Assembly: GCA_050261575.1 (NCBI GenBank) | Contig: JBLNDL010000090.1 | Coordinates: 1 to 35,093 of the forward strand | Reading direction: 5' to 3' | Length of the DNA: 35,093 bases | Source: Sphingomonadaceae bacterium | Lineage (GTDB): Bacteria; Chloroflexota; UBA6077 | Shown here: in pieces, positions 27,001 through 33,000 of the stretch | Position numbering within the stretch: position 1 is the stretch's first letter | Layout: every line of letters starts with the position of its first letter | Program-made: the position numbers

Positions 27001-30000
27001 AGCCGATCCAGATCGGGCTCCTCGGACACCTCCTGGCTGAGCGCCCGGCCTCGGACCCTGGCCGTCCGCATGTTCAGCAGCTCTCGCAGGGTGGAACGCT
27101 GGGACCAGATCGCCCGAGGGGTGGGCGGGTTGAGGCTCTCCGCCAGCCTCACCAGCATCTCGCCGATCTCCCCCGGATGCCGGCCCAGGGCCAGCTCGAT
27201 CCGCCGCTCCGAACCGAAGAGGTTGATGGCGAGGGGGAAATCGGCCCCCTTGACCCGCTCGAAGAGCAGGGCGGGACCCTTCTCCCGGACCACCCGGGTG
27301 GCGATCTCGGTGATCTCCAACTCGGGGTCCACCTCGACAGAGACGCGGCGCAGTTCGCCCTGGCGCTCCAGGTAGGCGATGAAGCCCTGTAGGTCGGAGA
27401 AAGCGCTATCAGCCATCAGCAGTCAGCCTTCAGAAACGGATGCGCCGCGTCGCTGCCTCCACCCAGACCCTCTCCCAGCGAAAAAGGGGATCCCCGCATC
27501 TCCCCATCTCCGCGTCCCCGTGTCTCCCCACTCCCCCCGTCGACCTGGTAGCCGACGGAGCGGAGCAGCAGCGCCCGCAGGGGAGGCAGCCGCTGCTCCA
27601 GCGTCTCCGCCCCCTCGGGCTCGTAGAGCCAGCGGGTGACTACCTCGTTGATCGCACCCAGCCAGACCCGGGCGGCCGTCTCGGTGTCCTGTGGAGGGAT
27701 CGACCCATCTGCGACGGCCCTGTCGAGGTGCCGCTTGATCGCCTCGGTCAGGCGGGCGCGAAGCGCGAAGAGGGTCGGGTCCATGCCTCGACCCAGCCCC
27801 ACCACCTCGATCAGCAGGATCCTGGCGAGGCTGCGATGGGTGGCGAACGCCTCCAGGACGGTCCGCAACGCGGCCTCCACCTTGGCGATGCCGCCCCTCT
27901 CCGAGGCGATGGCGGCGTCCATCCCGTCGATCAGGCGGCCGGCCAGGAACTCCACCAGGGCGAGGAAGATCCCCTGCTTGTTGGGGAAGTGGAAGTAGAC
28001 TGCCCCCTTGGAGGTGCCCGAGGCCCGCACGATGTCGTCGACGGAGCTGTCGTGGTAGCCCCGCTCGGCGAAGACCTGGACCGCGGCCTCCAGGATCCGG
28101 CGCCGGGTGGACTTCCGCCGCTCGGCCTGGCGGTCGCTCCCCTGGGCCTCGCCCTCGTCGCCCCAGTCGATCGCCACGCTGCCCCTCCGTTCACGATAGG
28201 ATAGAAACAGACCGACGCGTCGGTTTGTTTCTTCCAAGTGGCTGCATTATATCGGGCGGGCCGCCGCCGTGCAATAATGTGGGCTATCCGATCGGGACTC
28301 AGCACCATCCGAAGCAGTTGGAGGTTGGCATGGAGATCGTCGCCAACGGAGAGAATCTCACCCCAGAGCAGGTGGTGGAGGTGGCCCGCGGTGTGGCCAG
28401 GGTTCGCCCCGTCCTCCAGCCCCGATTCCGTGCCTCGCGCGAGTTGGTGGAGACCAAGGCCCACGGCGACGATCCGGTGTACGGAATCAACACCGGCTTC
28501 GGCCAGCTCGCCACCATCCGCATTCCCATCCACGACGTGGCGGAGCTTCAGCGCAACCTGATCGTGAGTCACTCCGCCGGCGTGGGGGAGCCCGTCCCCA
28601 CCGAGCTGTGCCGGGCCATCCTGCTGCTGCGCCTCAACGCCCTGGCAAAGGGCTACTCCGGCGTGCGCGAGGAGCTGGTGGAGCTGCTGGCAGAGATGCT
28701 GAACCGCCGCGTGCACCCGATCATCCCCACGCGCGGATCGGTGGGAGCCAGCGGCGACCTGGCGCCCCTGGCACACCTCGCCCTCGTGATCCTGGGACAG
28801 GGCGAGGCCGAGTACGAAGGGAGGACCCTGCCGGGGGCAGAGGCCCTGGCGCGGGCCGGCCTGGCCCCCCTCCGGTTGGAGGCCAAGGAGGGGCTGGCCC
28901 TCATCAACGGCACCCAGTTCATGACGGCCTACGGGGTGCTCGCCCTCCACGACGCCGAGAGGCTGGTGGAAGCCGCCGAGATCGCCTGCGCGCTGAGCAT
29001 CGAGGCGTTCAAGGGCTCCATGCGTCCCTCGGACCCCCGACTCCACGCCGTGCGGCCCCATCCCGGCCAGATCGATGCCGCGGCGCACCTCCACCGGCTG
29101 CTGGAGGGCAGCCCCATCGTGGAGTCCCACCAGCACGACTGTCCCCGCGTGCAGGACCCCTACTCCCTCCGCTGCGCACCTCAGGTGTTCGGGGCAGTCA
29201 GGGAGGGGCTCGCCTTCTGCCGGCGCACCCTGGAGCGAGAGATCAACTCCGCCACCGACAACCCCCTCTGCTTCCCGGACGACGGGGAGGTGATCTCCGG
29301 CGGCAACTTCCACGGTCAGCCGATCGCCCTGGCGCTGGACGTGGCGAAGCTGGTGATGACCCAGCTCGGCAACTTCTCCGATCGCCGCAGCTACCGGCTG
29401 CTGAGCGCCCACTTCAGCGGCCTCTCCCCCTTCCTGGCGAAGAACCCAGGGTTGAACTCCGGCTACATGGTGGCCCAGTACACCGGCGCGGCCCTCTGCG
29501 CCGAGAACCAGACCCTGGCGGTGCCCGCCTCCCTCCACTCCATCCCCACCTCGGCGGGGATGGAGGACTTCAACTCCATGGGAGCCACCGCGGCGCTGCA
29601 CCTGCGGACCATCGTGGAGAACGTGCGCCGGATCGTGGCCGTGGAGCTGCTGTGCGCCGCACAGGGGGTGGAGGAGCACCGCCCACTCAACACCACCCCG
29701 GCCCTGGAGGCAGCCGTGGCCTGCATACGCCAGGTGGTGCCCCCGCTGGACTCCGACCGGCCGCTCTCGGGCGAGATCGAGGCGGTGGCCGAGCTGATCC
29801 GGACCGGGACCCTCCAGGAAGAGGTGGGCAAAGCCCTCACCTGAGTGGTCGCCGGAGGGGTAGACGTGACGCGAGTAGTACTATTGGGCTATTTACTAGA
29901 TGCTGGCGGACCGTAGACTTCCAGTCGGTAGGACTGTCTCTCTCGATCTCCAGTCGAAAAGGGCAAACTCATCGAGAGATGGGGACGCAAAGCCATGGAT

Positions 30001-33000
30001 CCGAACCGGCCGTTCCGGCGCCAGGAGGATAGCCAGGTTGCCGCTGGGAGAGCCGCTCCCGCAGCGCCGCTACCTGTGTTCTCCACTGTGGCGGGTCCAT
30101 GGGCATCCGGATAGCGATCTCCCACCCTCTCGACGGGCCACGAGGAGGTACACGATGCGCAAGGCTACCCTTACCTTACTGGCGACTTTGGCTGTGGCGG
30201 TCATGCTGGCGCTGTCTACTGCGGTGGCGATGGCGGGCTGGGATTACGAGGGCGACTGCCCTCCGGCCTCGGCCAAGGCCAACCCCTCGGAGCAGGCTCT
30301 CGAGAACTGGCACTCCTTCGTGAACCCCACTCCCAACCTGCACGCGCTTCCAGAGGGGAATCCCGGCAAGAAGTACAAGATTCGGTAGGATCCCTGATCG
30401 GCGTTGCGGCTAACCACAGACAGATGCCCGGGTAGGAGCCGATACCGATCGGCTCCTACCCCTGTTCTGGCGATTGGGCGCGTCGTTCCGCAGATTCGAT
30501 GGTGCAGGGCGCGCCTGCCCTGCTTCGGGGACGATGCATACGAGGGATCGACCTCTGGCCGATCGCGCCCATCCCTGCCGGAGGTTGTCTGGTTGTGTCG
30601 GTGGACGGAAGCCAGTCCACAGGGACCATTGCCACGCAGGGCCACCCTGGAGTAGTCTTCTGCCGACGATGATCCCCATCCTGCCGACACGCAACCAGGG
30701 AGCGATCCGTTGAGAAGGTTCTCACGCCCCGTCCAAGGGTACATCCTGGCGGTCATGGCGGGTGGGATGGTCGTGCTGGTTGGGGTCCGCCCGTGGCAAC
30801 TCGAGGCCACGGATCCCCTGCTCTTGGTGACCCTGACGGCTGCCGGCATCCTCGCGGGCATCTTCAGGCTCCCCATGGCGGAGCGCCACCTGCGCATCAG
30901 CCTGCACGGCGCGGTCCTGTTGATGGCCGTCTTCCTGTCTACCACCCCCGCCGCCTGCTTCGTCGCCGCCGTCACCTCCGCCGTCTCCGGCATCGGGCTG
31001 AAGCTGCGCCCCTGGAACATCCCCTTCTCCAGCAGCTCCAGCGTGCTCTCCGTCGCCCTCGCCAGCTCGCTCTACCGCGCCATGGCTGATCCATCCCTAC
31101 TGCCCTTCGACAGTTGGGAGAATGCCACCGCGCTGCTGGTGTCAGCCGCCGCGTACTGGCTGGTCAGCAGCGCCATGGTCACCGTGCTGGTGGCGGACAC
31201 CAACCACCAGCCGTTCCTGCGAACCTACGCGGTCAACTGGCGGGAGGTCTACCTCCAGTGCATCCTCCTGACACTGCTCGGCGTGCTCGGCGCCGCGGCC
31301 TGGCGCCAGGGGTCCACCTACGCCTTCCTGCTGGTCGTGCCGGCGGTGGCGGTCTACCAACTGCTGACCATCACCAGGTTCAAGCAGGAGCAGGTGATCC
31401 ACGCCATCGAGATCATCGCCGAGGTGCTGGATCGCAAGAACCCCTTCACCTTCCAGCACTCTCAACGGGTGGCGGAGCACACGGTGAAGCTGGCGAAGAG
31501 CCTAGGCCTTCGCGACGGGGCGGTGGGCGCACTGCGCAGGGCCGCCCTGATCCACGACATCGGGAAGCTGGGGCTGGACGATCCGGCGGGGGAGATCCCC
31601 GCCACGCGGGGGGAGCTGAGCGACTACCAGTTCTACAGTCTCAAACAGCACGCCCACCTGGGAGCGATGATCGCTCGCGAGATCCCCGCCTTCGAGGAGG
31701 CGGAGGAGCCGATACGCTACCACCACGACTGGTACGACGGCAGCCACGTCTCAGGCGAGCACGCGCGGGAGGAGATCCCCCTGGGCGCGCGGATCATCGC
31801 CGTTGCCGACGCCTACGACCTGCTGTGCATGGCCAACGGCGAGGCATCGCTCACCTACGACCCGAAGGCTGTGGAGCAGTTGCGCACGATGAGTGGCAGG
31901 CAACTGGACCCCGAGCTGCTGGATCGCTTCCTGGAGCTGCTGGAGTCGCACCAGGCGGCGAAGCTGCAGCCCGGCGGGCAGATGGCCACGTGAGACCGGC
32001 CATCTGCCGACCTGCGTCACTCGTCCGCCCGGTTCCGTTGCAGGGGCCGCGGCCCCCACCGGTCTGCGCGGCGGCTCCTCCAGCAGCGGGGAGGGGCAGA
32101 ACCCGAAATGGTGCAAAGGCTGCTATAATACTGTTTCCGTGACGGCTAGAAGCCCGCAGCAATCTCATTCAGGAGTCCGAGCCTTGGAAGACCTTCCCGA
32201 GAGGAGCACAACCCAACCCCAGGCCGAGGAGCAGCCTGCCGAGGTCAGCGCCGAAGCTGCCGGGCAGGCCGAGGGGTCTCCGTCCAACGGGCCGGAACCG
32301 GCAGAGAAGCCGACGGGGCCTGAGACACCACCCCTGGCCGAACCCCAAGCCGAAGATGAAAGCCCCGCCGAAGCCCCGAAATCCCCCGACGCACCCCCAG
32401 CGGCCCCGCCCCGTCCAGCCAAACCCGTCGGCCCACGGATGGCAGAGCTGCGTCCGGGTAGTGTGGTGGAAGGCAAGGTCACCCGCATAGAGCGGTACGG
32501 GGCCTTCGTCAACCTGGGCCTGGTCGAGAAGCGCGACGGCCTGATCCACATCTCGGAACTGGCACCCTACCGGATCCGGCGGGTGGAGGACGTGGTGCGC
32601 GTGGGAGACGAGGTGCGCGCCCGCGTGGTCTCGGTCGACCTCAGCAGGGGCAGGATCGCGCTCTCCCTGAACGACGTCGACACCGGGGAGTACAAAGCAG
32701 AGGCGGCCAGCACCTCCAACGAGCCGACCTTGACCGCCATGGCCATGGCGTTCGAGCGAGCCTACGGCCGGCTGAGAGAGAGGGAGGCCGAGGGAAAGCC
32801 CGGCTCCGCCCGCAACAACCAGGGAGACAAGAAGCGGCGCGAGCAAGAAATGCTTATGGAGAAGTTCCGCTCGTCAAACCCCTAAGCAGGTATCTCTAGT
32901 TCATGTTGGTTTCTCCAGCGGGAAACGTGTACTCTATGTGGAGATACCTGCCTGGACTGGTGTCTCCAGTCCGCGTCAGCTTCTCTGACCGGAAACGTGT

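Follow-up and report, generated by a model that had tools for sequence, protein, structure and literature searches.

What does a c-di-GMP-I-type riboswitch control when the gene behind it encodes an orphan peptide, and does such a riboswitch belong to the canonical class or to its GGC variant? We examined this in the window, which is the whole stretch of 35,093 nucleotides of a Chloroflexota contig that was analysed. The reading that we favour, with moderate confidence, is that a canonical c-di-GMP-I riboswitch turns off the translation of a monocistronic mRNA for an exported 77-aa peptide. This mRNA would start near 29926, a few bases past a conserved promoter-like element, end at the hairpin listed in Table 1 and encode a pre-peptide with a leader of the Sec/signal-peptidase-I type. 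The aptamer and the small ORF that the survey had reported are real and stand at the coordinates it gave, and their order (riboswitch, signal-peptide ORF, hairpin and separate membrane HD-GYP-like gene) was recovered as well.

Table 1. Features of the riboswitch locus (positions in the window)
Feature	Position	Strand	Basis
Conserved promoter-like element	29876..29919	+	Invariant blocks in 7/7 aligned loci; putative promoter
c-di-GMP-I riboswitch aptamer	29953..30046	+	RF01051 69.1 bits; RF03167 67.0 bits; core letters G/A/C
Expression platform	30047..30154	+	Shine-Dalgarno (SD) and C-rich strand conserved in 6/6 aligned leaders; predicted mechanism
77-aa pre-peptide gene	30155..30388	+	Conserved frame, SD, Sec-type signal peptide
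GC-rich hairpin, 14 bp	30430..30461	+	dG -29.4 kcal/mol; probable transcript end
Membrane HD-GYP-like gene, 427 aa	30710..31993	+	HD_5 86.7 bits, HD 62 bits

The aptamer

In a cmscan of the whole window, RF03167 (c-di-GMP-I-GGC) was the single match above its gathering cut-off (67.0 bits against 59, E 6.5e-14), and one overlapping clan member was dropped beside it. The canonical model RF01051 (c-di-GMP-I, or GEMM-I) matched 29952-30045 over model positions 1-87 (E 2.6e-13), 34 bits over its own gathering cut-off of 35, and found no second c-di-GMP-I match in the 3.72-Mb genome. Three GGDEF domains in this genome provide a capacity for ligand synthesis.

The aptamer has the P1, P1a and P1b helices, with a GAGA loop of the GNRA type on P1a, and 20 of its 20 core model pairs are canonical (19-20 of 20 across all seven loci compared). 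RNAalifold also recovered P1a and P1b from the leader alignment. These helices, as well as the sense orientation in the 5' leader of a gene for a putative exported protein, are shared with c-di-GMP-I riboswitches such as Vc2 and Vc1 of Vibrio cholerae and Bc1/Bc2 of the Bacillus cereus group. The window aptamer differs from them in its orphan 77-aa output and in its long P1b, which brings it to 94 nt against 87 in the model. In addition, the tetraloop receptor of the RF01051 consensus (CUAAG...UAUG) is absent from P1b when read by eye, since the window has GAUCCGAACC...GGAGGAUAGCC where the consensus has guCUAAgg...cuAuGac. Receptor-less members of the c-di-GMP-I class exist, and the affinity of the window aptamer for c-di-GMP may differ because the receptor is missing.

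Promoter-like element, leader and predicted direction of control

Upstream of the aptamer, TAGTACTATTGGGCTATTTAC (29876-29896) overlaps a -35-like TTTACT (29892-29897), and a -10-like TAGACT (29914-29919) follows 16 nt past it. These blocks are invariant in the aligned loci irrespective of the upstream gene, and a second copy of the element with one mismatch lies in the same genome upstream of a secreted polysaccharide lyase gene. A strict sigma-70 scan made no call on the element. RNA-library contigs from four runs of two soil studies, whose transcript ends and strand are not readable and which may include DNA carried into RNA libraries, match 29937-30170, 29956-30173, 30151-30417 and 30252-30384 with 100% identity, a combined span of 29937-30417. 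By this presence in RNA libraries, the peptide gene is probably transcribed in soil.

The leader holds a GGAGAG (30047-30052) with two possible partners, UCUCC just 5' of the aptamer and CUCC(C) just downstream. An invariant Shine-Dalgarno GGAGG (30144-30148) stands 6 nt 5' of the ATG, and a C-rich anti-SD strand, CCCTCTCG (30125-30132), is kept together with it. A terminator scan found no U-tract terminator in the leader, unlike Bc1, for which the abstract of PMC4744006 describes terminators. Since the leader has no such terminator and two RNA-library contigs run from the aptamer through the start codon, the predicted control is most likely translational.

When the aptamer was enforced, opening the region from -14 to +6 around the AUG cost 2.3-7.9 kcal/mol more in six of the seven leaders, and the cost changed by -0.3 in one, a trend from equilibrium folding that includes no control of known direction. 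Because of this higher opening energy, we consider it somewhat more probable that c-di-GMP would switch translation off than on. The C-rich strand 12-20 nt upstream is able to pair with the SD, while G-rich strands in the unfolded aptamer offer the same C-rich strands an alternative partner. With the aptamer locked by c-di-GMP, the C-rich strand would be free to occlude the ribosome-binding site (RBS), and less peptide would be made at high c-di-GMP. The SD is mostly paired in both predicted states, with a probability of being unpaired of 0.17-0.55 in the free and 0.17-0.43 in the enforced state. The full leader folds no better than its shuffles (z -0.61), and RNAalifold yielded no well-supported alternative helix for the aligned leaders.

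The leader is rich in CU and GA strands with many possible pairings, and therefore the same riboswitch and peptide may instead form an on switch, a possible but rather unlikely arrangement in which c-di-GMP frees the RBS or blocks Rho-dependent termination. Production of the peptide would then belong to the high-c-di-GMP sessile state, as with many riboswitch-controlled adhesins and matrix proteins. Such a role would suit an exported product whose promoter element is shared with a secreted polysaccharide lyase gene, and signal-peptide proteins do stand downstream of many Chloroflexota c-di-GMP-I aptamers. The local SD hairpin resembles a default-off state needing relief, and the presence of the gene in the soil RNA libraries is also consistent with an on switch. 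However, the opposite trend, with the enforced aptamer lowering the cost of opening the RBS, appeared in 0/7 leaders, whether 20, 40 or 70 nt of the coding region were included, and no G-rich strand was found that only ligand binding would release.

Probable transcript end, neighbouring gene and distribution

The hairpin behind the peptide gene lacks a U-tract and was not called by a U-tract scan. Hairpins of -24 kcal/mol or below, unrelated in sequence, lie 23-54 nt past the stop codon in seven of the eight related loci. Given these hairpins and the 321 nt between the peptide ORF and the next gene, the peptide mRNA is probably monocistronic.

The next gene encodes a protein with about 225 N-terminal membrane residues ahead of an HD domain, which matches HD_5 (PF13487) far above the cut-off of 27.2. 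It resembles the HD-GYP phosphodiesterases with MASE9 in matching both HD_5 and HD and in its H, HD, H, HH and D positions, which are retained across 24 orthologues; the metal-binding set H250, H282, D283, H314, H338, H339 and D340 is invariant in 24 sequences. It differs from them in having HVS for GYP and HHD for HHE: all 24 orthologues read HHDWYDGSHVS[KR]xH where HHExxDGxGYP is expected, so that the GYP tripeptide is absent. Among NCBIfam models, a c-di-GMP phosphodiesterase family matches best, at 107 bits far under the cut-off of 400, and the phosphodiesterase role is putative. MASE9 (PF20972, cut-off 24.3) found no match in the window protein even at E<=1, while the orthologue P0026 reaches 26.6 bits and nine of the 24 orthologues carry a precomputed PF20972 assignment. 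Orthologues with 60-64% identity are present in all five genomes of one Chloroflexota family (f1) and in that family only.

In each of these five genomes, the promoter-like element, riboswitch and peptide gene stand 5' of the MASE9/HD-GYP-like gene. The survey had placed the riboswitch before every relative of the peptide. The pairing recurs in all eight related foreign loci; in seven of them the aptamer scores above the cut-off, but at L037 it is decayed (33 bits, below the cut-off). The four foreign loci of the survey all carry RF03167 at 64.8-71.3 bits, with the aptamer ending 93-107 nt from the start codon. Riboswitch, peptide gene and HD-GYP-like gene follow each other on the same strand in 7/8 related loci; L037 has an extra gene between the last two. 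To call the peptide the conserved output of this switch in Chloroflexota is too wide, since among 401 genomes of the phylum it was found with confidence in family f1 only. All the loci are syntenic relatives within this one family, and their conservation is thus largely shared ancestry, as the survey itself had cautioned.

Read-through of the U-less hairpin would turn the locus into a two-gene unit, in which the riboswitch acts on the MASE9/HD-GYP-like gene as feedback on c-di-GMP turnover and the small ORF is secondary. We regard this as unlikely. The missing U-tract and the same-strand order kept in seven of eight loci would allow it, but it is at odds with the strong post-peptide hairpins in as many loci, with the 321-nt spacer and with genome G227, where a gene on the opposite strand separates the peptide and HD-GYP-like genes and the second copy of the peptide gene lacks an HD-GYP-like neighbour.

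Canonical class or GGC variant

The consensus of RF03167 differs from that of RF01051 in only one upper-case core letter, a G instead of an A straight after GACGC (Vc2 A47), so that the stretch reads GGACGCGAAgCc in RF03167 and GACGCAAAgCc in RF01051. As Weinberg et al. are said to have defined it in 2017, the GGC label stands for the letters at positions 20, 47 and 92, and such a reading agrees with both consensus lines. The window carries G29962 (Vc2 G20), A29989 (Vc2 A47) and C30041 (Vc2 C92), the combination that is common to the canonical class, and an excerpt of PMC11218506 names these three Vc2 positions as ligand contacts. Counted along the aptamer, these letters fall at 10, 37 and 89, both in the window and in six further leaders. 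With the contact letters of L007 and L037 taken from alignments, the window and all eight related loci (9/9) have A at Vc2 47, within the stretch GCAAAG, together with G20 and C92. The variant-defining stretch reads GACGCAAAG in the window and the related loci, except for GCGCAAAG in L006 and L007.

By its defining letters, A at 47, G at 20 and C at 92 in all loci, the window aptamer is therefore a canonical c-di-GMP-I aptamer, and it would be expected to bind c-di-GMP. The survey had held that RF03167 matches at least as well as the canonical model, which is true by E-value but not by bits (67.0 vs 69.1), and its assignment to the GGC variant is not borne out. The family call of cmscan does not track the letter at position 47: four other Chloroflexota aptamers with A47 were called RF03167 despite equal or higher RF01051 bits, and three of seven RNAs with G47 were called RF01051. 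The GGC label stems from clan competition based on E-values.

A true GGC variant with a ligand other than c-di-GMP is highly improbable. The window aptamer does exceed the RF03167 cut-off, it shares a loosely modelled distal P1b with that family, where a receptor-less P1b is better suited to the loop-like treatment of the model, and RF03167 was kept as clan best in the window and seven related loci. Nevertheless, the letter that separates the families is A and not G in every locus, so by this defining letter the aptamer is not a member; the bits favour RF01051, and in the control RNAs the call is independent of that letter.

The peptide and its family

Residues 1-27 of the pre-peptide form a Sec-type signal peptide that, read from the sequence, consists of a basic MRK, a hydrophobic ATLTLLATLAVAVMLAL and STAVAMA before G, and is followed by GWDYEGDCPP and a variable tail. 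The small residues A25 and A27 at -3/-1 are invariant in 18 sequences and G28 is nearly so. Signal peptidase I would probably cleave behind A-M-A, and the mature exported peptide would start with G-W-D-Y-E-G-D.

The pre-peptide has no Pfam match at E<=0.01 and no NCBIfam match above cut-off. The five relatives reported by the survey (57-68% identical, 71-77 aa, 32 invariant columns, among 5.8e9 proteins) were all reproduced. The family is larger than this, with 17 matches among 1.84e9 representatives, 13 of them small proteins, in addition to the loci. The DCPP..NW..NPG(N)K core proposed by the survey holds among the closest relatives but not in the alignment of 18 sequences, in which six columns are invariant (M1, A25, A27, D34, P37 and A64). 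Only the signal peptide and the acidic-aromatic G-W-[DG]-[YW]-[ED]-D motif right behind it are conserved, and the motif occurs again inside the proteins of G056 and G227.

In six pairs of the four closest loci, pN/pS is 0.16-0.21 in the signal part, where synonymous change is plentiful (pS 0.42-0.67), vs 0.47-0.89 in the tail. The mature tail thus evolves almost neutrally, and any role of the peptide is putative. Because the SD is invariant, the frame is intact in all eight related loci (61-96 aa) and the signal part is constrained despite high pS, the ORF is coding. That it makes no functional protein, being a leader ORF or kept by RNA-level constraint only, would fit the relaxed tail, the uneven length and an AlphaFold model with two helices and no fold beyond, but is very improbable given the constrained signal part, the strong SD and a motif that is kept and even repeated.

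A possible circuit

Phr-type signalling peptides of Bacillota are made as short Sec-exported precursors in which the export signal is conserved and the exported part diverges fast. By analogy, the window pre-peptide resembles them in these respects, and a subtilisin-family protease gene adjoins the peptide gene in four of the eight related loci. It differs from them in having no sequence relation and no nearby RNPP-type receptor gene, and in its family the exported part carries the conserved motif N-terminally and not C-terminally.

It is conceivable, though quite doubtful, that the peptide and the MASE9/HD-GYP-like membrane protein form one circuit, in which the riboswitch gates the peptide and MASE9 senses it and tunes c-di-GMP hydrolysis. 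The peptide may be exported or held in the membrane, and the sensed part may be the GW[DG][YW][ED]D end or the unusually conserved hydrophobic leader. If this is true, the locus would encode second-messenger feedback that runs outside the cell and possibly from cell to cell, and the fast-diverging tail would confer lineage specificity, as in pheromone systems.

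Class of the riboswitch

By its defining letters and its score, the RNA listed first in the table is best read as a member of the c-di-GMP-I class. When the whole window was searched with cmscan, the sole match over the gathering cut-off was RF03167, the c-di-GMP-I-GGC variant family (67.0 bits, E 6.5e-14), with one overlapping clan member dropped. The canonical c-di-GMP-I model RF01051, scored alone, gave 69.1 bits (cut-off 35) and has no other match in the 3.72-Mb, 103-contig genome. RF03167 has one further, weak match in the genome (26.6 bits), which falls within an ORF of 264 aa and was taken as chance.

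In the cmscan output the two models have almost identical consensus lines over the conserved core (...GGCAAAcccgucGAAAgacgggGACGCAAAgCcAcgG... for RF01051 and ...GGCAAACCcgcCGAAAGgcgGGGACGCGAAgCcAcGG... for RF03167), with a single upper-case difference there, a G for A directly after GACGC in RF03167. The model structure line places this base first among the unpaired bases after a two-pair helix (G-C/C-G), and by its position it is the equivalent of A47 in the Vibrio Vc2 aptamer, whose ligand-contact bases are named as G20, A47 and C92 in PMC11218506. Because the sole difference sits at the A47 equivalent, the consensus letters at positions 20, 47 and 92 are G-G-C in RF03167 and G-A-C in RF01051. 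Weinberg et al. 2017 reportedly named variants by the letters at ligand-contact positions, in agreement with these consensus lines. Papers retrieved under the name of the variant, such as PMC12452182, give only family names in the passages found.

At the three positions the window carries G29962, A29989 and C30041, and all eight related loci that carry relatives of the downstream peptide have the same letters; in each of the seven leaders tested, 19 or 20 of the 20 pairs of the core model are canonical. The letter that defines the GGC variant is absent, and with A at position 47 throughout and the higher score of RF01051, the survey's finding of a GGC-variant riboswitch is not upheld. Its observation that four of four foreign loci match RF03167 (64.8-71.3 bits) was reproduced, with the 3' end of the aptamer 93-107 nt upstream of the start codon. 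The genome encodes three GGDEF domains, so c-di-GMP can be made.

The RF03167 label was examined with two controls. Among six other Chloroflexota loci, four with GCAAAG were called RF03167 despite equal or higher RF01051 bits (RF01051 versus RF03167: 81.1/75.3, 69.9/70.0, 77.3/66.9 and 75.7/65.3). Conversely, of seven aptamers with GCGAAG, four were called RF03167 (59.8-66.7 bits) and three RF01051; these were aptamer-like stretches chosen by eye among 80 listed of the 120 matches to a G47 pattern scan, which are mostly chance matches within genes. In neither control does the family call follow letter 47, and the label has no diagnostic value. Of 28 further c-di-GMP-I loci from Chloroflexota, 22 were readable by a simple regular expression, all with A, and six were not. 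The label is probably due to a missing CUAAG/UAUG tetraloop receptor and a long distal P1b, which RF03167 models as a loop, together with clan ranking by E-value. A "GGC variant" returned by clan competition in Rfam is thus not equivalent to a riboswitch with an unknown ligand, and the signature letter must be read. This removes a false lead; the mislabel touches at least four other canonical aptamers in the phylum sample, and the variant is probably over-counted in this phylum by Rfam-based annotation.

The A47 aptamers of loci L009, L011, L012 and L020 are labelled RF03167 by clan competition, with RF01051 up to 10 bits higher. The best-scoring Chloroflexota c-di-GMP-I aptamer of the sample (locus L008) has A, not G, at the Vc2 G20 position (UAGCAAACC), the signature of 3'3'-cGAMP-sensing GEMM-Ib RNAs. 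A literature search for c-di-GMP riboswitches in Chloroflexota gave only unrelated papers among the matches listed.

Features of the riboswitch-peptide locus and of related loci
Feature	Position	Strand	Remark
Aptamer	29953-30046	+	RF03167; 29952-30045 with RF01051
Peptide ORF	30155-30388	+	encodes MRKATLTLLATLAVAVMLALSTAVAMAGWDYEGDCPP..., 77 aa
Hairpin	30430-30461	+	14 bp, without U-tract; 3' of peptide ORF
HD-GYP-like gene	30710-31993	+	HD_5, 86.7 bits
Second copy of promoter/operator element	G000:C103:5913-5933 (L041 1501-1521)	-	21 nt, 1 mismatch
Peptide relative, genome G056	L039 4107-4397	-	96 aa
Peptide relative, genome G227	L038 2703-2924	-	
Peptide relative, genome G227	L037 2530-2742	-	
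Decayed aptamer (G227:C7)	L037 2857-2951	-	33 bits
Aptamer with A at G20 position (G006:C154)	L008 1501-1588	-	87.2 bits
Peptidase_S8 gene	L006 4066-5232	-	
Peptidase_S8 gene	L007 4452-5570	-	
Peptidase_S8 gene	L039 4806-6077	+	
Peptidase_S8 gene	L038 3318-4511	+	

The peptide family

The peptide ORF has GGAGG 6 nt upstream of its ATG. We recovered the five relatives reported in the survey (57-68% identity, 32 invariant columns), and a full phmmer search of 1.84e9 representatives gave 17 matches at E<=1e-3, of which 13 are proteins of 64-80 aa. The other four, long proteins aligned over short hydrophobic stretches, were set aside. Twelve further family members are represented by protein sequence only. 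In an alignment of 18 sequences M1, A25, A27, D34, P37 and A64 are invariant and L12, G28 and P36 nearly so; the DCPP/NW/NPGNK core proposed in the survey holds only in part of the family, with just its D34 and P37 invariant in this alignment. Common to the family is a signal peptide followed by A-G-W-[DG]-[YW]-[ED]-D. More divergent than this set are the relative in G056, with GWDYGD four times, the two copies in G227, with GWDWDD at both ends, and a 61-aa relative in genome G415 with ...ASWGWEDSHPTPP.... The repeats within the mature part in G056 and G227 suggest that the post-signal motif is the working unit.

The four closest loci form six pairs, in which pS of the signal part is 0.42-0.67 and its pN/pS 0.16-0.21, so the leader is conserved as protein and not as RNA, and the rest of the peptide has pN/pS of 0.47-0.89. 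Judged from these ratios, the predicted exported tail is close to neutral and the leader conserved, the reverse of the usual pattern. With this inverted conservation and the repeated GWDYGD/GWDWDD motif, the product could be a signalling or matrix peptide. The peptide matched no Pfam family, a single NCBIfam model under its cut-off (14.2 bits versus 22), nothing better than E 0.11 in a PDB profile search, and only unnamed clusters in the ESM Atlas. AlphaFold2 predicted helices at residues 2-34 and 46-56 and no domain (mean pLDDT 76.4, pTM 0.35).

Putative promoter, transcript and probable direction of the switch

Upstream of the aptamer, TAGTACTNTNNGGCNATTTAC(T), then 16 nt, then TA[GCA]ACT is invariant in seven of seven loci, and we read 29876-29919 as a putative operator or UP-like element, -35 box and -10 box. 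Strict scans of 29800-30800 returned no sigma-70 match and no U-tract terminator, the leader included. Elsewhere in the genome the element recurs some 240 nt upstream of the gene for a secreted polysaccharide lyase (PF14099, 42.9 bits), a hint that exported products may share a small regulon.

Contigs 100% identical to 29937-30170, 29956-30173, 30151-30417 and 30252-30384 were found in four metatranscriptome runs from two soil studies. Their starts lie some 11 nt or more downstream of the inferred transcript start (~29926), and they end just before the hairpin; neither ends nor strand can be fixed from such contigs, and carried-over DNA is possible. They show presence in RNA libraries and bridging from aptamer to start codon, no more. 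Two runs from one study gave contigs that end inside the coding region, at 30170 and 30173, and the contigs from the other study begin at 30151; these ends may reflect only coverage. The HutH and HD-GYP-like genes have no RNA-contig cover, gaps that prove nothing in contig-only runs. Hairpins of <=-24 kcal/mol follow the stop codon in seven of eight loci, with unrelated sequences.

All six aligned leaders keep the Shine-Dalgarno sequence and, 12-20 nt upstream, a C-rich strand able to pair with it (in the window 30125-30132 with 30142-30148). Straight 3' of the aptamer, GGAGAG can pair either with UCUCC just 5' of the aptamer, extending P1 (29947-29951/30047-30051), or with a CUCC(C) a few nucleotides further on; in L006, read by eye, the P1 extension is UACCC/GGGUA instead. 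Equilibrium folding is not decisive: it leaves the Shine-Dalgarno sequence largely paired in either state, and the complete leader is no more stable than shuffled sequences (MFE z-score -0.61). Enforcing the aptamer changed the cost of opening -14 to +6 around the AUG by +2.3-7.9 kcal/mol in six of seven leaders and by -0.3 in one, and the cost was never appreciably lower, whether 20, 40 or 70 nt of the coding region were included. Because this cost rises, the folding models lean slightly towards a translational off switch over an on switch; c-di-GMP would then switch peptide translation off through the leader.

Distribution and gene neighbourhood

Among 401 Chloroflexota genomes, a profile search gave convincing peptide matches (E below 1e-6) only in the window's genome, G056 and G227, all of one family (f1); matches in six other genomes (E 4e-4 to 8e-3) lie inside ORFs of 143-748 aa and were discounted. 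Among 39 genomes of the order, an orthologue of the HD-GYP-like protein at 60-64% identity occurs in five of five f1 genomes, the next best reaching 31%. The genes are arranged as HutH-type lyase, a divergent S8 protease (in some loci), riboswitch-peptide, HD-GYP-like gene, S1-domain gene and DapA, and the HD-GYP-like gene directly follows the peptide gene in six of the eight related loci. In G227 one peptide copy has it 3.5 kb away, and the other copy lacks it as a neighbour. The copy adjoining HutH (L037) has a decayed aptamer with broken P1a pairs, retains promoter element and peptide, and may be escaping riboswitch control. All loci are syntenic kin, and the association cannot be counted as independent evidence for selection, as the survey had itself cautioned.

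We also found a Peptidase_S8 (subtilisin-family) gene divergent from the riboswitch-peptide promoter in four of the eight related loci; it is absent there in the window. The upstream stretch 27416-29844 encodes an aromatic amino acid/histidine ammonia-lyase (+, 650.7 bits) as well as a regulator of the TetR family (-); the two genes keep their synteny in L006, L007 and L037 and have no apparent relation to the switch.

Output of the switch

The c-di-GMP-I class is biased toward genes of secreted and surface proteins, which the window's orphan, predicted exported mini-protein fits; a crude survey of 28 Chloroflexota c-di-GMP-I loci had the same bias. In L012, L013 and L014 (genomes G019, G043 and G067), c-di-GMP-I aptamers precede proteins of 120-153 aa starting ...AYAFAAANTVP.TKAGDG...., another small exported family under this class.

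A feedback circuit between the peptide and the HD-GYP-like protein with its putative MASE9 domain is improbable. The two co-occur in five of five genomes, a pattern confounded by kinship, and complex prediction of the peptide (alignment A2) with HD-GYP-like residues 1-235 (A5) gave 0.00 in two runs without controls, which speaks neither for nor against binding. For the study of c-di-GMP output in uncultured Chloroflexota from soil, the locus offers a compact case, in which the single c-di-GMP riboswitch of a genome is devoted to a 77-aa predicted exported peptide adjoining a membrane HD-GYP-like gene.
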